43,951 nt of DNA. Origin: Waddliaceae bacterium (GTDB taxonomy: Bacteria > Chlamydiota > Chlamydiia > Chlamydiales > Waddliaceae). Both the position numbers and the translations under genes were made by a program. Shown piece by piece: positions 3,422 through 41,707 of this stretch; the first letter of the stretch is position 1, and every line of letters starts with the position of its first letter. The notes beneath the pieces are model-generated. The model did no database searches. It was not told where the DNA came from and worked only from the letters and a program-made list of their open reading frames with translations. The stretch is from positions 1-43,951 of the forward strand of contig CAVRUH010000008.1 of NCBI GenBank assembly GCA_963724325.1, given 5' to 3'.

Positions 3422-5005
3422 TTAAAAGAGTGATCTTCTCAAATTTGATTTCTCAAGAAATTCTTCAAGTTGCGAAAAGTCAAAACTTCCTGTATGAGAT
3501 GTTCTTTCGGAGACGATAAGTTGATGCGCTTTATCTCTAGAAGATGGTAAACTCGCCACCTGTTTATCGGTTTGCTCCTTTGATATAACCACATCTTCGG
3601 TCCCTCTAACTATGGCAATATTGCCTTTTACCTTTGCAATATTTTTAACATTGTTGAAGTTAATTATTGCTGGTAAAATTTTATTCAAGATACTTCTTAT
3701 AATAGGAAAGCGTTCTCTTGCAACTTCTCGATAATCAGCGAAACTCCTGTCTAATATTAAGTTTACCCCTGCTCTTCTTGCAGCTAAATGAGATGCCGGG
3801 CCACCTCCCATACAATGTCCATGTACAAGCAGATCTTTATTTTGAACATGTTTTTCACTATTGAGATATTGGTATGCTGTTTCAAGATCTAATTTTATCT
3901 TTGTAGAGGTGGGGCTACCCTCACTTTTCCCATAACCTCTATAATCTACCATCATGACATTCATGCCTTTAATTAGGTAGCTTGCTGCCAAATGTTTATA
4001 GGCCGCAGCCGATATTCCAGATCCCCCTGCTATCAATACTGTTGGATGGGACTCCTGGGGGTTGGCGTCATTAATAGAAGGGATATTAGATGAGGGAACT
4101 TTTCCCAGCATGATAACTGAGCCCTTCACTTCTTTTTGATTAGGAATGGGGGCATTCGGATACGACTCAAGTCCTAAACGCTTCATTATATTTATGCTTT
4201 TTTCTCCTTCTGCATTTGGAACGAGTTTGGTTTGAGTTGTATGCACACCTCCTTGCTCGTGGATGATAATTTGAGGAGTAGTATACTCAGGTTTTAAAAT
4301 CAGCATTTGCTCTTTGCTGCCATCTGGCTGAATTTTTACCTCTTTATCATAAAATTTGTCAATATGATCTCTGAAATCTTTTGCGCTCATGTACATACCA
4401 TTAATATTATCTCCATCTGGAGTTTTCATTGTAACTTCTTGTCCACCTATAAATTTAAGATGTTCCCTGGCCTCTGAAACGCGTTTTTCATCGATAAATT
4501 TACCTTTAAGAAAAGAAGCTCCTTCAAAAATCACTGCTTTTAGTGGTCTAACTAATAAAGTCTTTGCAATATGATTAATTTTACTTACTCTTCTTATTTG
4601 TTCGCTTTTATCGCCATAGTCATAAATGGCTTCGAATGCATGTTTATCAATGCTTTGTTCTTTTCTGGATTTGTGAAGTATGGATTCCGCTTTTAAAGCG
4701 ACTTTTGCAGCGCTTTTAATTTTTTCATCGCCAAATTTTTCCAAACTTCTGACAACATTAAAAATAAATTGGGAAGCTGGAGCCTGAACTCCTAATTTAT
4801 TGGATAGGAATGTAGCTATGTTTCCAGCTGCATAAAGGGCAAGGGCTTGAGTCTTTAATGCTAAAACCTGAAGCTTTGGAGGTAACTTTGTGAAAACTGA
4901 GGAACCGCTTGGCAGACTCCCTTTTTGTGCTGCAAGCTGCATCCCTTCGCCAGTATTTGCAAGTTCAACATAACTATGATCATGTGAAACAATCTTTCTT
5001 ATCAT
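3422..5005 (-). CDS. Alpha/beta-hydrolase family protein with N-terminal extension (candidate effector)
   Basis: DYRGYGKSEG, nucleophile elbow GHCMGG, LILDRSF, then Asp (GTEDVVI) and His (SHTG). Confidence 0.85.
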   Translation of the reverse strand: MIRKIVSHDHSYVELANTGEGMQLAAQKGSLPSGSSVFTKLPPKLQVLALKTQALALYAAGNIATFLSNKLGVQAPASQFIFNVVRSLEKFGDEKIKSAAKVALKAESILHKSRKEQSIDKHAFEAIYDYGDKSEQIRRVSKINHIAKTLLVRPLKAVIFEGASFLKGKFIDEKRVSEAREHLKFIGGQEVTMKTPDGDNINGMYMSAKDFRDHIDKFYDKEVKIQPDGSKEQMLILKPEYTTPQIIIHEQGGVHTTQTKLVPNAEGEKSINIMKRLGLESYPNAPIPNQKEVKGSVIMLGKVPSSNIPSINDANPQESHPTVLIAGGSGISAAAYKHLAASYLIKGMNVMMVDYRGYGKSEGSPTSTKIKLDLETAYQYLNSEKHVQNKDLLVHGHCMGGGPASHLAARRAGVNLILDRSFADYREVARERFPIIRSILNKILPAIINFNNVKNIAKVKGNIAIVRGTEDVVISKEQTDKQVASLPSSRDKAHQLIVSERTSHTGSFDFSQLEEFLEKSNLRRSLF

Positions 5006-8100: not shown

Positions 8101-9827
8101 AGATCATGTTCTATGGTTTCATCTGTTAGATTTGCATGCTCATCTGCAGAAACTAATGGTTTGATAATATCTCTTAGTATTTTAGATACGTTCACCAGAT
8201 ATGGATGTAGATTCTGTGAAAGATAGGGCATGAGCCCGAAAATGTCTTTGTTTTTTTCTATGATGACGTTTATATATCTGTCCATTAGTGGAATTAGAGT
8301 TTGTTTATAAATATCCCAGCGAGAATCATTATCTATAATTTCTGATTCGCTACTTTTATCTATATTAGCGATAATAAAATCTCTAATGTCATTTTCATTT
8401 GAATTAATTTCTATTTTGTGTTGTTGATATATAGCCTCTTTAAGTTCCTTAGGGATTGCAGTTTTAAACGAAAGGTATTTTTCCGCATAATTGAGTTTTT
8501 GGGCTATAATTTCAGGTTTTTGAAATAAACTTAGTTCATATAATCCACCATTCATGTATAAATCCTGAAGTAACTTTCCCCAAAGTCGAATCATGAAGAC
8601 CTTGTTTTCGTCTGTTATTTCGATATTCTTTAGTGCATCTAAGGGCATGTCTACTGCATCGATATCCATCAGTTGAGTTATTGGACTAAGTAAATCAGTT
8701 GTAGCAGAGGGATTTTGCGGATTCTCAATTGCAGTTTCCAAAGGTAATAAGGCTTTGAAAACTTCCCATCTAATTTTTAGGTCATTTGCTGCATGCCTGG
8801 TGATTTCTTTTTTGTGTTTGAATATTACTTTATTAAACAGCTTATCTGCAATATCGGTTTCTCTAAATTTTGATAGTATTTTGGGGTTGGCCAGTGGAGA
8901 TTTTTTTAATTTCTCTAAAATATTTTTGGCTTCAGTTGTAACTATATCCTTTGCGAGTTCAAAAATTTCATTTTGAGGTAGCGATGTTGGAATTTTAATT
9001 TTTGCGGCAGTGGAAGATGTTAAAAGTTTTGCATAAAGGCTTAAAAAAAGAGCTAAAATATCATTTATTATATTTTGAAAAGCAGTTTTAATAGATATAA
9101 AAATAGTATCCGTTTTCTTTAAATTCACATTATTCCCTGAGTCATCAATTCTGACAATAAATTGGTTTTTTACAATATCAACAACATTTTCATGGTTTAG
9201 TTGATTCTGTAAAGTCTCTGTTAGGTCATTAACCTCAGATTTCAATATATCTACCCAACCTTTTAAATCATTATCAAGCTGATCTTCAGGAAAAATTTCA
9301 TTAATTAAATCATTTATTAATTCAATTTTTTCAGTGATTTTTGTCTCGATGAATTTCTCTATTTGAACGATAGTGTTTTGGATATTGCTACTTTCTATTC
9401 TCATAAAGCTTTTTGCAGTAATAGATTTTTTATTCAGTTCCTTATTGATTAAATCATTTAATTTCTCTTTTGCTTCTTTTAAGATTTTATTAGGATTCGA
9501 TGTTTCAGTATTTTGTTTTGAAATGAACTTACTAATCTTTTTGTTGATTTTAAAATGCTTGCCAATTAATATATTTATTTGGTCGACAACTTTCCCTTCG
9601 ATACCATTTATAAGTGAATTAATTTCATTGGAGAATTCTTCGAAAAACTCTATAAATTTTCCCTGCTTTTCTACATCTGAAGTAATTAATTTTTCAGTTT
9701 TAGTAAATATTTTTCCAATAGCATCATTCACTTTAATATTTAAATGTGTATTTTTATTGCTTGTTGTTGCATCTGGTAATTCATTGGGTGAATTACTAGA
9801 AAATGAACTATTAATTGGGCCTGACAT
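5172..9827 (-). CDS. 1551-aa coiled-coil-rich protein with C-terminal permuted papain-like (NlpC/P60-type) domain; candidate effector
   Basis: Ser/Asn-rich N-terminus; C-terminal order TGDIY...YQH...MICSEF...YPGKL. The ORF is secure, the domain call is moderate. Confidence 0.7.
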   Translation of the reverse strand: MSGPINSSFSSNSPNELPDATTSNKNTHLNIKVNDAIGKIFTKTEKLITSDVEKQGKFIEFFEEFSNEINSLINGIEGKVVDQINILIGKHFKINKKISKFISKQNTETSNPNKILKEAKEKLNDLINKELNKKSITAKSFMRIESSNIQNTIVQIEKFIETKITEKIELINDLINEIFPEDQLDNDLKGWVDILKSEVNDLTETLQNQLNHENVVDIVKNQFIVRIDDSGNNVNLKKTDTIFISIKTAFQNIINDILALFLSLYAKLLTSSTAAKIKIPTSLPQNEIFELAKDIVTTEAKNILEKLKKSPLANPKILSKFRETDIADKLFNKVIFKHKKEITRHAANDLKIRWEVFKALLPLETAIENPQNPSATTDLLSPITQLMDIDAVDMPLDALKNIEITDENKVFMIRLWGKLLQDLYMNGGLYELSLFQKPEIIAQKLNYAEKYLSFKTAIPKELKEAIYQQHKIEINSNENDIRDFIIANIDKSSESEIIDNDSRWDIYKQTLIPLMDRYINVIIEKNKDIFGLMPYLSQNLHPYLVNVSKILRDIIKPLVSADEHANLTDETIEHDLLSRLKINAINAFSVSKEAWHELQGSQLAEQLIRLSSPQTRMIRLPEGEEYIVASSQNDVKNSIKHLELKIAEIEKKVVKYSMRPIKREEKEKELKELYIKKELLLTVLNDWENRKMIANEEVLFQPVRYMDITQLSVDELENLSAYFSNNTKEQLLELFSKFKNISLMKDDSIFELDEVKESFKEFSTEHYNSLEKLSNEAKALIDNRNNILLDSEIDLEMDEQIIDLEIKINLLKEEYAETINEYMKIFSSGIMVKKIEPLLKEREVTIQFQSGDTRIYDIGVMNKEFMQKLRMYKTNLDNISDDVFYQQHQKFLINLPDQEQPIWIFDITKEQIDSLSERIEELKTSQEEITSFDEMKIVNDEIDSLKYLLNKIIATKEHRLLSTTFDTESLLTPNEKKLFAPQPLKLEIDASIDIQRLRSMAVFPENIPQVLDILKDIATQLLEKGKLTDSIDLLSQNELDLAVPYAKKYLEILTLISEFKEISDDRKTELIDSLNEIQSEITIEDLTNISNRSVHGLVTNDINFSDLSTEELKNLRIISHCLENLKGNKNFVLNSDQKKGLCDFFEYASGNKTLNKLLSKHIQSNHIADGISTATLKFLRAFTFKSKLLSQFQATTDKLVNAWQKISEGLPLQPNEKITISEFGILEQLIKSSKMFEKIKSMGLTSGDIKINDPLSSNIENLDKLRTIAVDITSKIQSAIGEEQNYSTGDIYLPIIDDELAFRGAKANLGTSFQRNLITRYQHEGKLFVSNEVSNKVFISEIMGKWLFDELRFKQLTYSDVYRILPVKLLSRESIPIFQEMYGDHYEEEINKLFQGIETEVHHEEKFTKKFQGLANDKKRRIDAGKAKYMVADRYKKAPRPFQKLHEKFFNEDISLGQKMICSEFTTKTTVVGLIELQIRLKEKVVEHLMQNGQVELAEKYKNDEKKLLDLPITERMKLSRFYPGKLIKVLSTKNAVVKIPRPKILQDIMK

Positions 9828-9959: not shown

Positions 9960-11615
9960 TGTAGGCGCAACGTAAAAATGATCCCTCTCAACAAAATAGA
10001 AATGATCCCTAATTAAGAAAATCCTATTATGACTTCTTTTAATAAGAGAAGCCAATAGGAGGTAAAATTGGAGGATCTTTTTATGAGCTCTAAGGAGATT
10101 CAAAGAGCATTGACGCTCGAGAATGTCAAATCTAAAGTAATTAGCCTAAAGCAGGCATCTGCACTTTTAAGTATATCTTATCCACAGGCTAAAAGGCTGT
10201 GGGCCAAGTACAAAATTGAAGGTGCAAAAGGCCTTGCATCCAAGAAACGAGGTAAAAAAAGTAACCGTGCCATTCCCCTTGAAAGACGCCAACAAATAGA
10301 GAAAATCATTAGTGAATATTACAAGGGTTTCGCCCCTTTATTCATTTCGGAGAAACTTGAAGAAGCACATGATATCAAATATTCATCGGAATTCATAAGG
10401 CAGTTAATGATTGAGTACCATTTATGGACCCCAAAGAAGTCTAAAAAAAGCATTCATCAACGTAGAGAAAGAAGGGAATGTGAAGGAGAACTTGTACAAA
10501 TTGATGCATCAAACCATAAGTGGTTTGAAGAAAGAGGGGCAAAATGTCATCTCCATCTCCTGATTGATGATGCATCCTCAACCATTTATGGTGCATATTT
10601 TGCTAAGGAAGAGACGACCGAGGCATATTTTCAAACATGTTTGCCTTATTTTTCGAGTAGAGGACTTCCTATTAATCTTTACGCAGACAAAAGAGGGACT
10701 TTTAAAGTTAATCAAGGTGGAAAAGAGGGGGCCGAAACACAATTTTCAAGAGCTATGAAGGAGCTTGATGTAAAAATAATTTTCGCTCATTCGCCACAAG
10801 CAAAAGGGCGCATTGAGAGGGTCTTTGGAACTCTTCAAGAACGTTTGGTATGGGAGATGCGTATTGCAGGTATCTCCACTATCAAAGAAGCCAATAAGTT
10901 TTTGCCTAACTTCATCGAGAACTTTAACAAACGGTTCAGGGTTGAACCCGCCAACACTTTCAATGCACATCGCAAATTAAAGCAAAACCAGTCTTTAAAG
11001 TACACACTTTGTAAAAAGGAACAATGTAAAGTAACACAAAACCTAGAAATTCAATACAATAAGATAACTTATCAACTTAATCCACCCGAACATCTACGGG
11101 AGGCACTAAAACGGGCAATGATTGTTGCCATTACGACTCTTGATAATGAATTGATATTTCAATACCAGGGGATAATGATTGAATATCAAATATTTGATGA
11201 TTTACCATATAAGCCAAATCAAGTAACTGAAGAAGAAAGGCTTAAGAATTGGAAGGAAAGAGTTAAACACAACCCTGGAAAAGGTCACCCTTGGAAAAGA
11301 CATAAGCTTAATCCCAAAACAATGGAAAGGTGCTAACTATAAGCTTATAACTTCAGACTCGTCCCTGCAAAAGGGCGAGGGGGGCTCCGCGCCCCCCTCG
11401 CCCTCCCCTGCGCCAAAGGGCAGGGCCCTCTGGACACCCAAATAATTGGGGGTTCCTCGCCCCCTTTGCAAACCTCTCCTGAAGTGTTTATCTTTACGTT
11501 CAAGTCTTAAAACTACATAGATGTTAAATAAAAGGTTTTATGCTATAATGAAGATGTCTCGAAAGGGATCATTTCTAATTTGTCGGAAAGGGATCATTTC
11601 TATTTTGCGCTAACA
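9960..11615 (+). mobile_element. Complete insertion sequence, IS1202/ISNCY-type (1656 bp)
   Basis: TGT...ACA ends; imperfect ~52-bp TIRs each with two AAATGATCCCT sub-repeats; flanking 16-bp direct repeat ATATTTATACATTTTT at 9944-9959 and 11616-11631. Confidence 0.93.
10068..11336 (+). CDS. DDE transposase (ISNCY/IS1202 group)
   Basis: N-terminal HTH; GELVQIDAS..HKWFE, LIDDASS, YADK, SPQAKGRIERVFGTLQERL; RBS AGGAGG before TTG. Confidence 0.95.
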   Translation: MEDLFMSSKEIQRALTLENVKSKVISLKQASALLSISYPQAKRLWAKYKIEGAKGLASKKRGKKSNRAIPLERRQQIEKIISEYYKGFAPLFISEKLEEAHDIKYSSEFIRQLMIEYHLWTPKKSKKSIHQRRERRECEGELVQIDASNHKWFEERGAKCHLHLLIDDASSTIYGAYFAKEETTEAYFQTCLPYFSSRGLPINLYADKRGTFKVNQGGKEGAETQFSRAMKELDVKIIFAHSPQAKGRIERVFGTLQERLVWEMRIAGISTIKEANKFLPNFIENFNKRFRVEPANTFNAHRKLKQNQSLKYTLCKKEQCKVTQNLEIQYNKITYQLNPPEHLREALKRAMIVAITTLDNELIFQYQGIMIEYQIFDDLPYKPNQVTEEERLKNWKERVKHNPGKGHPWKRHKLNPKTMERC

Positions 11616-11723: not shown

Positions 11724-13208
11724 ATGGTAAAAAGTACAGGCGATCTAAATTTCAAAAGAATCAATGTTCATGCTAATAGTGGTCTTGCCAAACGGAGCAA
11801 TTCAAGTGAAGGTAAAATTGAGCGATATTCACTAGGAAAGTTTATTAAGGTTGTGTTGATCACTCCCCGAAATTATACAAGAATTTTACAGGTTATTGGA
11901 TTCCTATTTGTGCAAGGAGTTTTAAAACTTTCATTTATATTCACTTCCAAAATAGGTTTTGGCAAATTAAGTGTGAAAATTAAAGATCAGCACACTTTCG
12001 TGATGAAAAATAAAGTAGTTGTTTTAAATAGGATCACCCACGCTTGGGGTAAAAAAATCTTTGGTGACCGGTTAAAGGGGACCACGGTAAATATAGGAAA
12101 AGCCAATGTAACGAAAAAGCAGGAAGAAGAAGGTATTAAAGCTGCTCTAGATGTTTTAAAAAAGGACCCAACTATTGCTAGAATTCTTGATGAAAATCCA
12201 GAGATAGAATCTAATATACGAACTTTTATTATTTTTGGTGTTTGCTGGGGATCATCTATAGAATTCATTCGCGATTATTTGGAGGCAAAGAAGGAAGATC
12301 CATCAAGATCTAATATACTTGAGGATATTACAGTTAAGTTGTCGAAGGGTGCTGATCTTGTTGCAACAATTAAGCATGGGATATATTTGCAGTTATGGAA
12401 TTTTAAAAATCAGTTAGGGAATCAATACGGTGATTGGACGATGTTCAGAAGAGGTTTGGTGGGGCTTAGATTGAATCAGGAAAAACTGGGAGATGTCAAT
12501 TGCGACAAATTGATGATTTGTACAGATATACTCAAAAAAATATATAACAATAATGAAACGAAAGATCTAATAACTGAGATGTCTGAGCCTTATAACTCAG
12601 AAAATAAATTAATAAACCTTATAAACAATAATAGTTCGGAAGAAGAAATTGAATTGACAAGTGATGAGGTAGGTTATTTGTCTAGTATGATTGAGTATAT
12701 TCGGTTTCGAAAGGGTAAATGTACATTGTCCAATGAAAGTAAAGAAAGAGTGAGAATTTTGTTTCAATCGGAATGGATAACTTCACAAAGAGATTTGCAT
12801 GAGAAAATTATTAACTTGGACAACATACAAGATAGTCCAGATGGTACTTCTCGAGCAGCTCTAAAAGAAGTTGATATTGATCTTGGAGAGACAGTGGGGT
12901 TATTTGAGCTGTTTGATTCTACTAAAGAGCAAATTAAAGATATAAATGATTTACCTACAGGTGCTTACCAAATTAGTTTTACCACTGGAAATGGATCTCA
13001 TGCATGTGTATTTATAAAAGAGGAAGGGAATACTACTCTATTTGACATCTATTATGGTATGATTGAATGTGGCGATCAGGACCCTGCAGAGGCATTACTG
13101 CAGCTTATGTATTCCTATAAACCTCCCAATATACCACCAGGAAATGATAAAAAAGCTGATCCCAATTATAGATTTGAAATTTACGGGTACGAGCTTGCTA
13201 AAAAATAG
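11724..13208 (+). CDS. YopT/AvrPphB-like (C58) cysteine protease, candidate effector
   Basis: GVCWG (Cys174), SHACVF (His426), LFDIYYG (Asp441); His-Asp spacing of 15. Confidence 0.7.
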   Translation: MVKSTGDLNFKRINVHANSGLAKRSNSSEGKIERYSLGKFIKVVLITPRNYTRILQVIGFLFVQGVLKLSFIFTSKIGFGKLSVKIKDQHTFVMKNKVVVLNRITHAWGKKIFGDRLKGTTVNIGKANVTKKQEEEGIKAALDVLKKDPTIARILDENPEIESNIRTFIIFGVCWGSSIEFIRDYLEAKKEDPSRSNILEDITVKLSKGADLVATIKHGIYLQLWNFKNQLGNQYGDWTMFRRGLVGLRLNQEKLGDVNCDKLMICTDILKKIYNNNETKDLITEMSEPYNSENKLINLINNNSSEEEIELTSDEVGYLSSMIEYIRFRKGKCTLSNESKERVRILFQSEWITSQRDLHEKIINLDNIQDSPDGTSRAALKEVDIDLGETVGLFELFDSTKEQIKDINDLPTGAYQISFTTGNGSHACVFIKEEGNTTLFDIYYGMIECGDQDPAEALLQLMYSYKPPNIPPGNDKKADPNYRFEIYGYELAKK

Positions 13209-18076: not shown

Positions 18077-19099
18077 TTAGAGCTGCAAAGCTTCTTGGAT
18101 GTTGTCTATGTAGGCATCGAATTGGGGACCGAGTGCCGGTAGGGAAATTGTGTGGTTGCTGGATTTACAACCTATGACGTCAATCTTAATCTTCTTTAAG
18201 GTTGCCCCCGGATTAGATTTTTTAAAGACTTTATGCAGAGATGCTTGGTATTTAATAATATGGTCATTTTTGGCAACGATTGTGAACTTATAACCATTAA
18301 TTTTGCGATAATTGCTAACACTGTCAAATTTCCACCCTCCAAGCCATGCAATTCCTCCCAAGAGACCGCCTACTACCGGAATCAATCCTTTGACCGCATG
18401 TGTTAGAGTCGCGAATGAGCGATCATTGCAAAGATGCATTTCATGACCGGGTTCTTGGTGAAGGGCAGCGACTTCAGTAGCGACACCACCACCAATCGAC
18501 CAGCCATGCAATAGAATGTTCTCTGAAGGAACACCAGATGCTAGCAGCTTTTGAACCATGGCTTCTCCATCAAGGATCATATCATGTGTTGAGTTGGCTC
18601 TTCCTTTGCTTTCCATCACTCCGCGATAGTTGCCTGTGTAAACGTTTGCTCCGGTTCTGACTGAAATTTCCTTTAATTCTTCAATGAGATCCTCATAACT
18701 AGCGGCATTAGGATTAAAGAATACAATCCATTTTTGTTGTGCAGCAGGCAAGTTAAGTTGATTTGCATTCTGCCTCATGAGTGTATCAAGTTCGACGCCG
18801 TCTGCTGTTGTTACTTTGACTTGATGAAGGTGATTAGATGGGTCTTGGACCATTGCATTTTTGATGTTTATTAGGTGTTGATTTTGGTCGCTTCTGCAGG
18901 TATAGGTTGCTGGCAGGACAGCCAGTCTTCCTGCAAAGTTGACTAACAGACGAACAAGACCTATGGGGAATACGATGGCGGAGAAGATGTTCCAGGCGAT
19001 GCGGCATATTTTTTGAAAACGCTCGAGGTGAATATTGATTTTAAAAACGTTTCTTTCTGGGGTAACTTGAAAGTTATCTGTTAAATTCTGGACCAACAT
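18077..19099 (-). CDS. Chlamydial-type alpha/beta-hydrolase family protein (candidate effector)
   Basis: NYRGVMESKG, HGWSIGG, NDRSF, DHII, terminal His; start moved to ATG 19099 because of RBS AAGGA. Confidence 0.82.
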   Translation of the reverse strand: MLVQNLTDNFQVTPERNVFKINIHLERFQKICRIAWNIFSAIVFPIGLVRLLVNFAGRLAVLPATYTCRSDQNQHLINIKNAMVQDPSNHLHQVKVTTADGVELDTLMRQNANQLNLPAAQQKWIVFFNPNAASYEDLIEELKEISVRTGANVYTGNYRGVMESKGRANSTHDMILDGEAMVQKLLASGVPSENILLHGWSIGGGVATEVAALHQEPGHEMHLCNDRSFATLTHAVKGLIPVVGGLLGGIAWLGGWKFDSVSNYRKINGYKFTIVAKNDHIIKYQASLHKVFKKSNPGATLKKIKIDVIGCKSSNHTISLPALGPQFDAYIDNIQEALQL

Positions 19100-19202
19100 G
19101 TTTATATCCTTTTTTAAAATTATTTTTTTGTTATGCAATGATTGTAGCATTTCTATGTAAAGATTGTATAAATTTATTGCCTAAAGTGGTAAAATATGAC
19201 CT

Positions 19203-29756: not shown

Positions 29757-31196
29757 TTATTTCTTGTTAGGAGGTTTTGCAGGAAGGATGCTAAAATCGT
29801 ACATTGTTAGACTTTGGTTAGGCGCTGACCTATGAAAGAGCCTTTTCCCATCGAAGTACATTTTATCATGGTAAGTACTATCGAAATTTGCAAATTTTGA
29901 TTGAATATTACCAACCCATTTGGAGAGAGTTAAATCCCATAAATGAACGCCGTCAGACGTGGCAAAATAACAGATGTCATCTTGAAAAAGGCACTTTGAA
30001 TTCTTACAATTTTCCCATTTGCCGAGTATTTTTCCGGTGAGAATATTTAGAATAATTAACTCATCAGGGTCGCTAGTGGAAATGAATGCTGTGTTCTGTT
30101 TAGCATATACTTTTAAAATAGTGCCTTTGGTGGTAAGCAAGTTGGTATCGATGAGTCCTGTTGCTAGATCCCAGGCAACAAGTGTATTTGGTTTACCACC
30201 TGGCGTCCCAATCAATAAATTTGCAATTTCGCAATAGGCGGGCAGGCAATTCATCTCCATGGAATGCAGTAATTTACCATTATTTATGTCGTGTATTTGA
30301 GTGTCAAAAGGATCATATTCAGTGAGAACAAGGAATTTATTAGTTGAGAGAAATTGATGCCCCCATTCGATAGTATAGAGTATGGCTCCTTTGTCAATAT
30401 CAATGACATGCAAAATTCCATATATATCAATAGAGAAGAATAAATCTCCAATTAATTTGGAGTAGTAAAGCGGAGTTTGAGAAATGGGGACTTTGAAAGG
30501 TTGTTTGAGCAAGGTATTTGTTTTGTAGTCCCGGATTTTCATTTTCCCACCTGGGGTAGTATAAATCACACAAGAACTGTCCATGTGATAAAAAGCGTAA
30601 TTGGGAATAAATTTGGCGAAAACACAGACCCCGTCTATTGCTCTCCAAATTGAAATTTGTTTGGCTTCTCGACCTACGCCACACAAATCTATGGCGAAGT
30701 ATTGATCATCTAAGGAACACATGTTCTTTAGGTTGCTTGGAAATGGAATCGAAGCTAAGTTAGGAAGGCTCTTTTTAAAGGTTGGTAAAGGGATTCCTGC
30801 TATTTTTTGCAGCGAATTACCAGTTTTTAAATCGAAGGAAGTTATATTACGGTGCATTTCAACAAATTGATATACCCGATCGCTAAATACGGCAAAATTG
30901 TTATTGGAACCAAGCGCCACTATTGGCAAACTCAATTTGTTGAAATTTTTAGAATTTATATTTTTGGTTAACAGATATCGTTCAATGGAAAATTTTTTCC
31001 AGTTTGTAATTTTGGAATAACTCAAATCTGCAAAAGGACTTGTGTGTGCGCAGACATTTTTCCATATGGAATCTGTTGCATCGATGATGTCTTTGAATTT
31101 TTTACAAACCTCCCTGCACTTTCCTAGAACATGGATATCATCGGTTCGTTCAAAAGTATAGGCCAGTAAATTATTATCTAAACTATGGATGCTCAT
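29757..31196 (-). CDS. F-box protein with C-terminal WD40-like beta-propeller
   Basis: N-terminal L..NLLAYTF...CREVCKKFKDI....IWK; repeats ending SFDLKTG, AWDLATG, LWDL. Confidence 0.8.
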   Translation of the reverse strand: MSIHSLDNNLLAYTFERTDDIHVLGKCREVCKKFKDIIDATDSIWKNVCAHTSPFADLSYSKITNWKKFSIERYLLTKNINSKNFNKLSLPIVALGSNNNFAVFSDRVYQFVEMHRNITSFDLKTGNSLQKIAGIPLPTFKKSLPNLASIPFPSNLKNMCSLDDQYFAIDLCGVGREAKQISIWRAIDGVCVFAKFIPNYAFYHMDSSCVIYTTPGGKMKIRDYKTNTLLKQPFKVPISQTPLYYSKLIGDLFFSIDIYGILHVIDIDKGAILYTIEWGHQFLSTNKFLVLTEYDPFDTQIHDINNGKLLHSMEMNCLPAYCEIANLLIGTPGGKPNTLVAWDLATGLIDTNLLTTKGTILKVYAKQNTAFISTSDPDELIILNILTGKILGKWENCKNSKCLFQDDICYFATSDGVHLWDLTLSKWVGNIQSKFANFDSTYHDKMYFDGKRLFHRSAPNQSLTMYDFSILPAKPPNKK

Positions 31197-34044: not shown

Positions 34045-34166
34045 ACGCCGAATATGGAGTGACCCAATTCATTGGGCTCGGTGAATGGCGATATCTTGCC
34101 ATTCACAGGGCCGAATAAATTCGGCCCTGAAAAAGACCCAATGAATATGGTCACTCCATACGGCGT
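34045..34166. repeat. Branched palindromic element (REP/REPIN-like)
   Basis: Outer stem ACGCCG..TATGGAGTGACC..ATTCATTGGG / CCCAATGAAT..GGTCACTCCATACGGCGT enclosing hairpins at 34081-34106 and 34106-34129. Confidence 0.8.
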
Positions 34167-35062: not shown

Positions 35063-35120
35063 TCCATTTCTTTAAAATTGGGTTCAATATAGAAAGTCAG
35101 ATGAAAGTTGTCAACAAGTT
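35063..35120 (-). promoter_or_regulatory. 58-bp direct repeat copy 1 containing a sigma70/sigma66-type promoter
   Basis: Minus strand TTGACA (35114-35109), 17 bp, TATATT (35091-35086); identical to 37593-37650. Confidence 0.8.
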
Positions 35121-35177: not shown

Positions 35178-36038
35178 CTATTGGTTTCTTTGTAACTCAT
35201 CGTAAAATGCAGAAACTTTCTTGAAGCTATCATCAAGACTTTCATCGATACCACAATCAACTGCCATCGTTGTGAAAGGTTTTACCCAACTTGTTGGTGG
35301 TTTTGGCAAAATCAAGGGTAATAGGTGTGTATTTCTTGCTCTGAATACTCTGCTGAGTGCATTTTGGAAAGTTCTAGTTTCTTGATTTTTGATTTTTAAT
35401 AGTAGTATCAAATCGATAAGGTCCTTTGTGCGCGTATTGATTTGATTTCTGGGGAAGGGGTAGGCGTGCACCTTCTCGGCAAATTGTTGCGCTTGGGAGA
35501 TAATGGGAATAGCAGGAGCTGGAATGTCATAGAACTCAAGCCAATTTTCTCCGGTGATTATCTCTGTGTCATCAATAAGAAAGTCTCCCCCTACATCGAT
35601 CGGAAACTCAGAAAATAGTTTGTTGTCAATAATCGACGTAACAATATGACGTGAACCCCCATAAGGGGCATTTTCAATGTCAATTTGGGGGAGACCAATA
35701 CGGTAGATAAAATGGTCATTTAAATTGATTTGGGCAAAGGTTTGGAGCTCTTGCAAAATCAATTCACTCATGGGTTCTTTTAAAGTCTCCGCACGCTTGA
35801 GATAGGTAAAATCCATATCTTTTGTGGCGCGGGCATTGCTAAAGCGTAATTCCATGGCATACCCTCCCTTTAAGAAAAACGAGGATTGCTGACGATTGAA
35901 AATTCTTGCTAAAAGACGATCGAAAGCAACCCTTCGGCGCAGACGGACTATGTTTTCGCCTGTCTTGACAGAGTGCTTGTCAAGGTGATTACCTAAGTGT
36001 TTGAGAAAGTTGGCAGCTGTTTTTAAATTATTGGTCAT
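35178..36038 (-). CDS. abiEii: AbiEii-family nucleotidyltransferase toxin (type IV TA)
   Basis: RRRVAFDRLLAR, LKGGYAMELR..RATKDMD, AEKVHAY, TRTKDLID. Confidence 0.9.
   Translation of the reverse strand: MTNNLKTAANFLKHLGNHLDKHSVKTGENIVRLRRRVAFDRLLARIFNRQQSSFFLKGGYAMELRFSNARATKDMDFTYLKRAETLKEPMSELILQELQTFAQINLNDHFIYRIGLPQIDIENAPYGGSRHIVTSIIDNKLFSEFPIDVGGDFLIDDTEIITGENWLEFYDIPAPAIPIISQAQQFAEKVHAYPFPRNQINTRTKDLIDLILLLKIKNQETRTFQNALSRVFRARNTHLLPLILPKPPTSWVKPFTTMAVDCGIDESLDDSFKKVSAFYDELQRNQ
35205..35245. repeat. 41-bp direct repeat copy 1 (within abiEii 3' end)
   Basis: Matches 37544-37584 at 40/41 positions. Confidence 0.9.
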
Positions 36039-37437
36039 GTGTTTTTCCTAGTCTTGAGATTACTGAAAGAATGGACTGGGGTCCGTGAAAATAGACGTTT
36101 CGCTGCCCTGACGATGGATTGTAGCCATCTGGAGCTTGAGTAATTGCTATGCCAATTAACGTAGGAATGTTATTTGTAAATTTCCAAAGCCCACTTCCGC
36201 TAAGTCCTTCGAAGGATTTAATCACCTTCCTTCGTAAATTTCTTATCTCATACGTATGATTGCTGACTGGGCATACAATATAATCTAGTTCTCGCAGTTG
36301 ATTGTAGTTTGAAGCAACAAAAGCATAGGGACCCATGTTTAATTGGCATGTTTTTGAGTCATCTAGATAAATTGGCTCGATGCCGCCAAGCGAGATAAGG
36401 GCATCGTTCAATGAAAACCCCTTTAGTTCATCAGTTATTTTGTAAAAAGCTTTAAAATTATTTAAAATATCAATGATTTGTTGTTCAGGTATAATGATTG
36501 CCAAATCTTTTGCTTGATTTGAAATGACGTCATTAAGTTTATCTTCAGGAAGAGCAGAATCCCATTCAATTACTTTGAAATTTTTTGTTGCTTGAGCGGG
36601 ATATTCTCTTCGGATGGTATCAAAGCGTAGAATCAGTTTTACAGATTTTGATCTGCGAAGGTCTCTACCGACATGTCCTGCTGTTAGCAGGAAGTATTGC
36701 GATTTGTATTGGCATAACACTGCAGTAGCAAATCTAACGTCGTCCAGGGCTAATCCAATTGTATAGGGTTCTATCATCCGTCCTAAATCTGCTAGTTGTA
36801 TACTAGCACGAGTCCAAACTTTATCGACTGCATGAACGATAATTTTTCGCAATTCATGTTCTTCCGTGAATTTCTGGAGTTCTTCCATTTCTTGAATGGT
36901 TGCAAGACCCTTAACTAAAGATTTTTGGATTGCAAGATCAAGAATTGCAAGTTCGATTTGTTCGTTTTGGGCAGTTCCTTCCCGAACTACATCGGCTAAT
37001 GTTTGTAAAGGAGTGGTTATTCGATATCCTGGTCGATATTCTATGCCAGTTGAGGGGATTTCATTCACATAATGTAGGCGGAGCTGTTGTGGGATTCCTG
37101 CGCTTTTTCTAAAACCTTTCGGCACAGACATATGGAGTTTGGATGGTGAGACGTCGCTAAGTTCATGAATGTCTAGTGCAGTTTCATGTGACCATATTCC
37201 CTGAGGTATGCCATCCTTATTTCTACTCCAAAGCATCCATAGTGTAAGTTCTGGCCTTGAAGAGTGAGGATAATTAGCAAGCCGATAAATGCCTCGAATT
37301 TCTTCTTTAAGCCATTTTCCCGATTTAATCTTCCTTGAAAAATTTGTGCGTGAAAAGCCGCATTGCTCTGCTTGCTGGCTGGTGAAGTAGCCTTGTTGGC
37401 TTTCGCAGATTTGGAGTAGTTTAGCCTCTTTGTTCAT
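36028..37437 (-). CDS. abiEi: AbiEi-family antitoxin fused to C-terminal trypsin-like serine protease
   Basis: N-half: QQGYFT..QA, RGIYRL, SHETAL..H.LSD, TTPLQTLAD. C-half: LLTAGHV, DLAII, GLSGSGLW, LIGI. Likely start MNKEAKLL at 37437; 11-nt overlap with abiEii. Confidence 0.85.
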   Translation of the reverse strand: MNKEAKLLQICESQQGYFTSQQAEQCGFSRTNFSRKIKSGKWLKEEIRGIYRLANYPHSSRPELTLWMLWSRNKDGIPQGIWSHETALDIHELSDVSPSKLHMSVPKGFRKSAGIPQQLRLHYVNEIPSTGIEYRPGYRITTPLQTLADVVREGTAQNEQIELAILDLAIQKSLVKGLATIQEMEELQKFTEEHELRKIIVHAVDKVWTRASIQLADLGRMIEPYTIGLALDDVRFATAVLCQYKSQYFLLTAGHVGRDLRRSKSVKLILRFDTIRREYPAQATKNFKVIEWDSALPEDKLNDVISNQAKDLAIIIPEQQIIDILNNFKAFYKITDELKGFSLNDALISLGGIEPIYLDDSKTCQLNMGPYAFVASNYNQLRELDYIVCPVSNHTYEIRNLRRKVIKSFEGLSGSGLWKFTNNIPTLIGIAITQAPDGYNPSSGQRNVYFHGPQSILSVISRLGKTHDQ

Positions 37438-37543
37438 ATACACATATGTTATCAAAATAATCACTTTTAAGCAAGAGCATAGTATTTTCAAAGTAAATGT
37501 CATGCATTTGATTACATTTATGCTGGTACTTGGATTGTGCTAC

Positions 37544-37584
37544 AAATGCAGAAACTTTCTTGAAGCTATCATCAAGATTTTCAT
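37544..37584. repeat. 41-bp direct repeat copy 2 (abiEii 3' fragment in the leader)
   Basis: AAATGCAGAAACTTTCTTGAAGCTATCATCAAGATTTTCAT vs 35205-35245. Confidence 0.9.
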
Positions 37585-37592
37585 GAGTTGTC

Positions 37593-37650
37593 TCCATTTC
37601 TTTAAAATTGGGTTCAATATAGAAAGTCAGATGAAAGTTGTCAACAAGTT
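37593..37650 (-). promoter_or_regulatory. 58-bp direct repeat copy 2 containing the same promoter
   Basis: Identical to 35063-35120 (offset 2530 bp); TTGACA-N17-TATATT at 37644-37616. Confidence 0.8.
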
Positions 37651-37673: not shown

Positions 37674-37760
37674 CGGAAGAGGAGGGATTTGAACCCCCGG
37701 TACTCTTTCGAGTACTTCAGTTTTCGAAACTGACGCAATCAGCCGCTCTGCCACTCTTCC
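37674..37760 (-). tRNA. tRNA-Ser(CGA), CCA not encoded
   Basis: Acceptor stem GGAAGAG/CTCTTCC, anticodon arm TCAGT-TTCGAAA-ACTGA, long variable arm, GGTTCAAATCC T-loop, discriminator G. Confidence 0.97.
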
Positions 37761-37806: not shown

Positions 37807-38640
37807 TTAAATCTGGTACGTCGCCCCTTCAATACCAGACTCGATAGTAAAAGGAAAATTCAATGCCTGGGCTTTCTTGATATCAGCATCTAGTCTTTCA
37901 TCACTGTGTGTTGGATCATGATGAAAGGCAACAAACCTTTTTACTCCAGTGAGCTCGGCAAACTTTAACGCATGCTCCATAGAACTATGCCCCCACCCAA
38001 TGCAATTACTATATTCTTCTTCACTGTACTGCGCATCGTGAATCAGTAAATCCGTTCCATGCGCCAAGCTAAATCCAGATGTCCACTCTGCCGAATCGGG
38101 GAATTTTTTGTATCCAAGTGCAGGCTCATGATCTGGAATAAATGTCATGGAGACATCTCCTTCACTAATTCTGTAACCAACAGTGGTTCCTGGATGACAG
38201 ATAAGGTCGGTCTTTATTTTAAAAGGGCCGATTTCAAAATCACCAATGGGAACATTATGAAGAGATAGATTACAGTCTAATTCTCGAAGCCGCACGGGAA
38301 AGAGGGGAGGAGATAGGTAATGAGCTAGTCTTTCACTTAGGCACATAGTTGTTGATGGGGGGCCCCAAATGTGCAATTCCTTTTCAGGCATAAATAAAGG
38401 AGCAAAAAATCCGAGGCCAATGATATGGTCGAAGTGTAAATGTGTTAATAAAAGGTCGATCCTTTGATTTTCTTCTGTGAGAGTATTGCCGAGGAGGCGA
38501 ATCCCGCTGCCGGCATCGAGTATGAGTAGCGAATCATCTTTTGAGCGAACTTCTACGCAAGTTGTATTTCCTCCGTAACGTGTTGTCGATTCGCCAGGTG
38601 TTGGTATTGATCCTCTAGCACCCCACAGCTTTATTTTCAT
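37807..38640 (-). CDS. MBL-fold metallo-hydrolase
   Basis: GARGSIP, YGGNTTC, DAGSG, THLHFDH, HDAQY, GWGHS, FHHDP. Confidence 0.92.
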   Translation of the reverse strand: MKIKLWGARGSIPTPGESTTRYGGNTTCVEVRSKDDSLLILDAGSGIRLLGNTLTEENQRIDLLLTHLHFDHIIGLGFFAPLFMPEKELHIWGPPSTTMCLSERLAHYLSPPLFPVRLRELDCNLSLHNVPIGDFEIGPFKIKTDLICHPGTTVGYRISEGDVSMTFIPDHEPALGYKKFPDSAEWTSGFSLAHGTDLLIHDAQYSEEEYSNCIGWGHSSMEHALKFAELTGVKRFVAFHHDPTHSDERLDADIKKAQALNFPFTIESGIEGATYQI

Positions 38641-39029
38641 GCTTCTTTAATCTCCCAAAAAATCGAGATGGCCCCTAAATGCCTTCCTCCTTGCCCTTCG
38701 ATGGGAAATGCTGTGGATTCGATAATCTTTGATGTACCATCAAGGGAGCGAACTCGCATCTTTTGATGGGTTGGTCTGTGTTCTCTGAGAGCTATGTTTA
38801 CGGGGAGGCTCTCTGATGGTATTGGGATGCCCTCTAAGGAGCTATTTTTTAAAAAAGTAGATATATTCTCGGCTTTAATCTGATTGGTGAATTCGGAGTG
38901 AAGCCCTAGAAGTTTCTCTGCAGTTTCGTTGAAGTAGATCATGTCTCCTTTATCATTGATAATCCAAACGGCATGTGCTAAATTGCTAGCCCATTGTCTT
39001 GTTAGAATAAGCTCTAGGGGTTGCTGCAT
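38637..39029 (-). CDS. Stand-alone PAS-domain protein
   Basis: VWIINDKGDMIYFNETAEKLLG PAS N-terminus and C-terminal beta scaffold; 4-nt overlap with the MBL gene. Confidence 0.85.
   Translation of the reverse strand: MQQPLELILTRQWASNLAHAVWIINDKGDMIYFNETAEKLLGLHSEFTNQIKAENISTFLKNSSLEGIPIPSESLPVNIALREHRPTHQKMRVRSLDGTSKIIESTAFPIEGQGGRHLGAISIFWEIKEA

Positions 39030-40834: not shown

Positions 40835-41707
<873 letters not shown>

Follow-up and report, generated by a model that had tools for sequence, protein, structure and literature searches.

Fusion of an AbiE antitoxin to a predicted serine protease in Chlamydiota: a conserved variant of the module and a possible built-in trigger

Background

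Why should the antitoxin of a toxin-antitoxin (TA) module carry a protease? The question is raised by a locus in a 43,951-nt stretch of DNA from a Waddliaceae bacterium of the phylum Chlamydiota (contig CAVRUH010000008.1, assembly GCA_963724325.1), hereafter referred to as the window, in which the gene of an AbiEi antitoxin runs on into a predicted trypsin-like serine protease and is followed by the gene of the AbiEii nucleotidyltransferase toxin. A preliminary description of this locus, made from the sequence, had proposed a protease-armed AbiE system.

In S. agalactiae, AbiEi represses its own operon, binds only unphosphorylated AbiEii and induces the auto-phosphorylation of the toxin, and it does not stay on the phosphorylated product (10.64898/2026.01.19.700257). 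The plain AbiEi is stable and is thought to be a poor target of cellular proteases, and toxin activation is left unexplained (10.64898/2026.01.19.700257). The activation of AbiE/MenAT toxins is hence an open question, which a natural variant with a conserved, tied protease makes testable by one point mutant. We have found that the locus is a real, conserved AbiEi-protease fusion, a variant of AbiE that is apparently undescribed, and that a second lineage carries the protease on AbiEii, which is a new finding of this work.

Results and discussion

An AbiE operon whose antitoxin continues into a second domain

The module consists of the following parts, with residues numbered throughout in a frame of 491 aa.

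36028..37437, minus strand: gene of the AbiEi-protease fusion, 469 aa when counted from Met23 in the longest open reading frame (ORF)
36883..37437, minus strand: AbiEi part, a winged helix-turn-helix (wHTH), an antitoxin domain with an S-D-V-A-P loop and a C-terminal helix (Pfam, PADLOC, profile match)
36883..36972, minus strand: aa 178-207, the helix at the C-terminus of AbiEi, which contains a 5-residue insertion and is the best-conserved segment of the fusion
36031..36858, minus strand: serine protease domain, predicted chymotrypsin fold, with an N-terminal helix (motifs, alignment, PADLOC, models)
35178..36038, minus strand: abiEii, nucleotidyltransferase toxin, 286 aa (Pfam E = 3.6e-22, PADLOC E = 5.5e-71)

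The minus strand of 36028-37503 forms a single uninterrupted frame of 491 codons, in which the probable start is Met23 at 37437; the resulting 469 aa agree with the length of the database protein, and most homologues share this Met. The claim that one frame holds both the AbiEi motifs (SHETAL at aa 105, TTPLQTLAD at aa 163) and the codons of a protease triad is thus borne out. Pfam AbiEi_4 (E = 1e-7) and, over aa 4-198, the PADLOC AbiEi model (E = 5.6e-51) both recognise the N-terminal half, which has the N-terminal wHTH and the C-terminal antitoxin domain with active-site loop that mark members of AbiE. The S-D-V-A-P loop aligns with the T-D-E-I-P loop of S. agalactiae AbiEi (9HLO, 6Y8Q) in a weak profile match (E = 0.006-0.014). 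NCBIfam has no model for either AbiE protein, nor for the protease. AbiEi is complete, as had been claimed, but it stops near aa 207 rather than aa 225, and the helix at about aa 216-247 is assigned to the protease family because stand-alone relatives of the protease also have it. Eight DNA runs, and no RNA run, were listed as having a share, always small, of this sequence; short pieces from four of these DNA runs, possibly of the source study, match 35817-36059 and 37395-37627 without difference, and none of them spans the domain junction.

The fusion gene overlaps abiEii by 11 nt (36028-36038), in the AbiE order of abiEi followed by abiEii, and the toxin is intact, both as described before. 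With motif definitions from PMC3985639 and 10.64898/2026.01.19.700257, nucleotidyltransferase motifs I-IV are all present, formed by G58 G59, R70, D74, D76, K189, R197 and K205-D206-x-x-D209; among 15 sequences G58 G59, R70, D74, D76, K189, K205, D206 and D209 are invariant and R197 nearly so. T72 is likewise invariant within R-x-T-x-D-x-D, and we infer that it is the predicted equivalent of the phospho-acceptor T65, because the spacing is the same as in R63-T65-D67-D69 of S. agalactiae (10.64898/2026.01.19.700257). The AbiEii proteins next to AbiEi fusions form a clade of their own (14 rows, support 100), and the parts of the module therefore travel together. A comparison of 14 AbiEii sequences beside fusions with 10 plain ones revealed no insertion and the same length and layout, which rules out a gated toxin loop and sets these toxins apart from the gated nucleases of PMC12799240.

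Three toxin genes deserve mention in their own right. The abiEii of L026 bears a 5-residue tandem duplication in motif IV that resembles one fixed in the fused AbiEi lineage. A plain AbiEii (L075, 367 aa in total) extends by about 110 residues that look GNAT acetyltransferase-like by eye. In L028, a 165-nt palindromic element (8488-8653) splits abiEii without breaking its frame; the element adds 55 residues and has a second copy at 4625-4788 of that locus.

The C-terminal domain is predicted to be a chymotrypsin-type protease

The predicted triad of the protease domain is encoded at these positions.

36673-36675, minus strand: His277, in LLTAGHV
36505-36507, minus strand: Asp333, in DLAII
36199-36201, minus strand: Ser435, in GLSGSG

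Pfam recognises nothing above its cut-off in the C-terminal half (Trypsin, E = 0.11); within the family, Trypsin appears at E up to 1 in 13 of 28 members, with a best value of 2.6e-5. The Atlas groups the domain with Trypsin_2 clusters (score 0.98). A model of the full-length protein (predicted local distance difference test, pLDDT, 77) resembles elastase (Z 17.5) and DegS (Z 17.2). A model of the domain alone (pLDDT 89.6, predicted template modelling score, pTM, 0.89) finds elastase in Foldseek (E = 9e-8, template modelling score, TM, 0.62), and in VIA it finds granzyme M and DegS with Z 16.6 over 187-212 residues, among 48,161 chains. The models thus predict a double-barrel serine protease fold of the chymotrypsin type. 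Furthermore, in 28 diverse protease domains, with identities down to 22%, the Ser and Asp columns are invariant and His is kept in at least 90%, and the Asp and Ser align with those of kallikrein. A chymotrypsin-clan C-terminal half with an ordered triad, as first read from the motifs, is hence upheld by the models, the fold comparison that had been called for and the conservation of His277, Asp333 and Ser435. We placed the position equivalent to the trypsin specificity residue through the kallikrein alignment, by the usual numbering; because the residue there is variable and not a conserved Asp, the cleavage specificity is probably not trypsin-like.

The likeness to HtrA/DegS and elastase lies in the fold (Z 16.4-17.5, rmsd 3.1-3.8 A over 187-217 residues), and the start of DegS aligns with the region of the N-terminal helix of the domain. 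On the other hand, identity to these proteases is 9-16%, the domain shows no PDZ domain or signal peptide, and it has G-L-S-G-S-G where they have G-D/N-S-G-G-P. Among defence proteins, the PADLOC model of LmuA, PDLC03855, matches the fusion over profile positions of about 5-196 (E = 1.1e-5); it also matches 10 of 11 other protease-bearing proteins scanned, with the stand-alone relatives reaching E = 1.7e-12.

The fusion is conserved, and selection appears to keep the protease intact

A homologue search with aa 230-491 as the query gave 81 clusters from 1211 candidates, of which 70, including that of the protein itself, span both domains. The one-frame fusion therefore recurs, as the preliminary description had asked, in 69 other clusters and in independent genomes. 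His is present in 77, Asp in 81 and Ser in 76 of the 81 clusters, three of which are truncated before Ser. Counted on the alignment, the full triad is found in 68 of the 70 full fusions, and the other two have Asp in place of His; a fixed-window motif count (63/70) misses shifted motifs. The triad is retained among fusions at 44-72% identity. The median ratio of nonsynonymous to synonymous substitution rates (dN/dS; Nei-Gojobori on 20 genes, pairs with dS under 1.5) is 0.16 for the protease (89 of 190 pairs) and 0.10 for AbiEi (43 pairs). Because of this triad count and the dN/dS of the protease, we take selection to keep the protease intact.

All hosts with a name are Chlamydiota (5/5 taxon-named hits and 4/4 named loci). 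Within this phylum the protease domain occurs in 16 of 401 genomes, and in none of six from the family of the source genome, whereas AbiEi, mainly as frames of 190-230 aa, occurs in 81 of the 401; the fusion is therefore a minority form, patchily distributed, of a mobile module that is common. No match was obtained in plasmids, phages or viral contigs at the sensitivity used. Longer fusions, sought with the 28-sequence domain alignment, were not found, yet known proteins of 546-549 aa were also missed by this search. As for AbiEi itself, the 30 genomes of family f4 (those listed being 1.0-1.2 Mb) have no match, and several other families carry it in 17-60% of their genomes.

Gene context and a second arrangement

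Removal of duplicates, broken fusions and contig ends left 20 loci with an intact fusion and downstream sequence. In 18 of them abiEii or a remnant of it lies directly downstream: the toxin gene is intact in 14, broken in four (L028, L039, L045, L046) and absent in the remaining two (L023, L035). The genes flanking the fusions vary from locus to locus, and decay of the module is seen in L032, L037, L045, L046, L048 and L061.

In L033 the protease has the other partner: a plain abiEi (192 aa) precedes a 549-aa AbiEii that carries a protease domain of the same family. Such AbiEii-protease fusions make up 10 of 44 hits, nine with the AbiEii Pfam label, one being partial. Stand-alone members of 257-289 aa account for 9 of 24 hits in a 1.84-billion library; those with context lie beside HicB and YhcG nuclease genes (L034, L036) or a DNA methyltransferase-Vsr cluster (L038). 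Every AbiE-linked copy of the protease with context is fused to AbiEi or AbiEii, and these three stand-alone copies are not beside abiE, so that tethering of the protease to AbiE seems to matter. In a tree of 29 protease domains, the AbiEii-fused set forms one clade (100/99) and a branch (82/88) has the AbiEi-fused set to one side of it. A single origin of both fusion types is not rejected (approximately unbiased test, p-AU 0.16), and an independent origin from unrelated proteases accordingly finds no support; since the partners differ, there were at least two fusion events.

Upstream of the module of the window, beyond a tRNA gene, lies one further candidate partner.

37807-38640: metallo-beta-lactamase (MBL) hydrolase, RNase Z/phosphodiesterase-like (model matches)

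A role as partner nuclease is ruled out by these model matches together with the occurrence of this MBL gene in 1 of 35 loci (tblastn with one query; four of the 35 being duplicates). This MBL gene overlaps a stand-alone PAS gene (37807-39029 for the two), and its chlamydial relatives are mostly longer proteins. No other gene recurs as a third member in the loci read, and the substrate of the protease is therefore to be sought in the operon or the host.

The C-terminal helix of AbiEi as a candidate coupling segment

The segment aa 178-207 has a mean identity of 82% in 67 fused proteins (three basal ones omitted), compared with 73-75% in the rest of AbiEi and 69% in the protease, whereas in 17 plain AbiEi proteins the corresponding stretch reaches 41% against 67-68% elsewhere. 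The 5-residue insertion is present in 66 of the 70 fusions, and the model has a pLDDT below 50 at aa 192-202. Judged by this pattern, the segment may be a site of docking or cleavage; it may also be a toxin interface, because it overlaps the toxin-touching part of S. agalactiae AbiEi.

Promoter and operators

Upstream of the fusion gene, the following elements were predicted.

37442..37470, no strand: proximal palindromic operator, predicted AbiEi site, covering the promoter-like box
37474-37446, minus strand: promoter-like TTGCTT-17-TAACAT, read by eye without support from a promoter scan, 8 nt before the ATG
37493..37521, no strand: distal palindromic operator, predicted (palindrome scan)

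The predicted operator of AbiE, here a 29-bp palindrome just before the start, is present in 41 of 42 loci compared with 6 of 840 shuffles. Of 24 AbiEi-fusion loci, 21 have at least two copies, as does L033, whereas 15 of 17 plain loci have one, one has none and one has two. We regard the pairing of operators with the fusion as a lead only, because a fused locus supplied the motif, the loci are related to each other, and two operator sets are also present at the rv2827c promoter, where there is no protease (PMC7319586). Where operators are double, their starts lie 40-51 nt apart in every locus (mostly 50-51, otherwise 40-43), near whole helical turns.

No Shine-Dalgarno sequence was seen before the ATG of the fusion. 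In fused and most plain chlamydial abiE loci alike, the ATG stands 6-8 nt after the operator and a TAACAT-like box, again with no Shine-Dalgarno sequence, which suggests leaderless mRNA.

What the protease may do

We tentatively favour the reading that this is an AbiE operon with a predicted protease on its antitoxin as a built-in trigger, which would cut AbiEi and so end both repression and toxin phosphorylation. With the same reserve, AbiEi can be called the likeliest substrate of a latent, tethered protease, because no third gene accompanies the fusion, the toxin appears unadapted, the tail of the antitoxin is newly constrained, and either type of fusion would deliver the protease to AbiEi. 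In the resting state the protease would be latent. The activating signal would most likely be phage or foreign DNA that clusters AbiEi molecules, comparable to HamMAB, in which the protease fused to HamA needs oligomerisation, is activated by clustering and cuts after Ile (PMC12799240). Once active, the protease would cleave AbiEi, for which the conserved C-terminal helix with its insertion is a possible site; repression and phosphorylation would then end, and newly made AbiEii would modify tRNA and arrest growth. The preliminary description had let the protease destroy the antitoxin half in order to release the toxin. A conserved fusion beside an intact abiEii, with a protease akin to a defence effector (PADLOC LmuA), stands, but the release does not: because S. 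agalactiae AbiEi leaves phosphorylated AbiEii, loss of the antitoxin would not free bound toxin but would lift repression and leave new toxin unphosphorylated. Somewhat more doubtful is the wider proposal of a TA system that has its own latent trypsin-fold trigger protease on either subunit, in two arrangements in Chlamydiota, and whose antitoxin-repressor is destroyed upon a foreign-DNA or phage signal without Lon or Clp. If true, it would be a self-contained activation switch for a TA system, with no need of these cellular proteases.

Several points weigh against cutting of AbiEi. Two of the 20 intact fusions, L023 and L035, have no adjoining abiEii, and L035 keeps the triad on a long branch; since family members also stand alone, the protease can act on targets that do not belong to AbiE. 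Nor can the trigger consist of clustering alone, since operator binding would itself gather several proteases. What the protease cleaves in Avs, Hachiman and Lamassu is a partner effector and not a regulator (PMC12799240). A role against phages is unproven, because no defence by S. agalactiae AbiE was seen against 32 coliphages (10.64898/2026.01.19.700257) and the hosts here are probably intracellular. With respect to the helix, four of the 70 fusions and the antitoxin of L033 are without the insertion, and residues 150-162 of S. agalactiae AbiEi, which aa 178-207 overlaps by rough position, touch the toxin (10.64898/2026.01.19.700257).

The protease might instead be a second effector that, upon activation or derepression, cuts host or phage proteins in parallel to the toxin, with AbiEi or the AbiEi:AbiEii complex as sensor and leash, which we consider unlikely but the best of the alternatives. 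It would agree with the match to the LmuA effector model, with the company kept by the stand-alone relatives and with the triad of the orphan fusions L023 and L035, kept without abiEii; paired operators would fit the tighter repression that a second effector may call for, although double operators also occur at protease-free rv2827c (PMC7319586) and the fused loci are kin. This reading is weakened by the lack of a conserved substrate gene nearby and of any three-gene form with a separate protease beside abiE in the loci read.

A clearly less probable substrate is AbiEii, which the protease would either remove, as a second layer of antitoxicity, when AbiEi has captured it unphosphorylated, or mature. 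AbiEi, which binds only unphosphorylated AbiEii (10.64898/2026.01.19.700257), would bring the protease to the active toxin, the second architecture carries the protease on the toxin itself, and related proteases in defence systems cleave a partner enzyme and thereby activate it (PMC12799240). However, the toxins beside fusions are plain-like, without a gating insertion, and plain AbiE, which is far commoner, needs no protease.

Similarly improbable is a passenger, i.e. an unrelated mobile protease gene that entered abiE, became fused when a stop codon was lost, and is kept by addiction or for an unrelated job under AbiEi control. The patchy, often decaying module, the His-to-Asp change in two of 70 fusions, a dN/dS higher in the protease than in AbiEi and the single ancestral AbiE-protease association that the tree does not reject would all suit a passenger; retention of the triad in fusions so far diverged, a dN/dS far below 1, two different fusion partners and the changed constraint on the AbiEi tail would not. 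Finally, an assembly or frameshift artefact, which the lack of a read or contig across the junction and the short duplications flanking the module could have suggested, is refuted by the same one-frame fusion in the other clusters and in independent genomes.

Relation to known systems

Every testable feature of AbiE was found, and the defining features of nuclease-protease pairs are absent. AbiE of S. agalactiae (AbiEi-AbiEii, COG5340-DUF1814; 6Y8Q, 9HLO) and MenA/MenT of M. tuberculosis are the closest known systems, with the same gene order and overlap, the wHTH and antitoxin domain, the active-site loop, motifs I-IV, a Thr at the phospho-acceptor position and operators over the promoter. 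Compared with plain AbiE, the fusion system adds a serine protease domain of 270 residues on AbiEi or AbiEii; moreover, its C-terminal helix is conserved and bears an insertion, its palindromes are short (29 bp) and usually two, and its start is apparently leaderless.

Lamassu (LmuA), Avs1, Hachiman (HamMAB) and the DRT proteases also fuse a trypsin-like domain to a defence protein (PMC12799240), but there it is N-terminal and accompanied by an upstream MBL pro-nuclease, and a Lamassu protease has been paired with a hydrolase (10.1101/2025.04.02.646746). In the present fusions the protease follows AbiEi or AbiEii at the C-terminal side, the upstream genes differ from locus to locus, and no SMC, STAND or helicase sensor is linked to the fusion in the loci read. 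The parallel with Avs and Lamassu that had been drawn is therefore partial: it holds for the LmuA model match and fails for the nuclease partner, which is not conserved. These findings extend trypsin-like defence proteases to a setting that lacks their known nuclease partner.

In LexA, phage CI and CapH-CapP a repressor is removed on a signal, and an S24 Ser-Lys dyad defines the LexA/CI family. If AbiEi is what the protease cuts, the likeness to these systems and to IrrE-DdrO would be that a dedicated protease removes a repressor on a signal; the difference is that they use a Ser-Lys dyad or a metalloprotease, whereas here a His-Asp-Ser triad in a chymotrypsin fold is predicted and the repressor is also the antitoxin. 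The predicted fold and the triad, both of the chymotrypsin type, rule out a self-cleaving S24 repressor of the LexA/CI type.

A literature search, made without supplements and mostly without subscription papers, revealed no description of an AbiE-protease fusion, in agreement with the preliminary description; further loci, which may be relevant here, are given in fig. S2C of PMC12799240. The passages searched of PMC12799240 and 10.1101/2025.09.30.679545 do not mention AbiE, those of 10.64898/2026.10.19.760177 name AbiEii and trypsin only in other systems, and those of PMC10880633, on type II systems in Waddlia, name AbiEii only in a reference. The fusions thus point to unstudied conflict systems in environmental Chlamydiota.

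Insertion site of this copy and other features of the window

The module of the window is bordered by repeats and a tRNA gene.

37544..37584, minus strand: D1, a 41-nt near-copy (98%) of 35205-35245, the 3' end of abiEii; lies upstream of the operon and was seen only in this genome
37593..37650, minus strand: D2, upstream copy of a 58-nt perfect direct repeat (repeat search)
35063..35120, minus strand: D2, downstream copy, in front of a methyltransferase gene (repeat search)
37674..37760, minus strand: tRNA-Ser(CGA), directly upstream of the module

D1 is covered without difference by a contig of run X2, and both copies of D2 hold a sigma70-like promoter of strong consensus, TTGACA-17-TATATT. 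From their arrangement around the module, D1 and the D2 repeats look like an insertion scar. No empty site was found, as the flanking MBL and methyltransferase genes did not turn up in the seven genomes of the same family that were searched, and no repeats like D1 or D2 were seen around 19 other loci.

Five other contigs together carry well over 100 matches to a palindromic element of about 80-110 nt at 34053-34160, and some of these matches are regularly spaced, one every 112, 215-218 or 245 nt or so (C1 769.5-774.5 kb, C7 385-386.5 kb and 65-66.6 kb, C5 208-209.5 kb); the element may be a repetitive extragenic palindromic (REP)-like or miniature mobile element. The genome encodes two further, distant AbiEi-like genes (C7 157467-157781 and C1 247082-247441; 23-29% identity). 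Many other long ORFs of the window have no Pfam match; the window also encodes an integrase-core transposase (10068-11336), a protein with a weak C58 peptidase match (11724-13208, E = 0.02), a chlamydial DUF818 hydrolase (18077-19150), an F-box-like protein (29757-31196) and a collagen-like Gly-Pro-Thr repeat protein (40835-41707).

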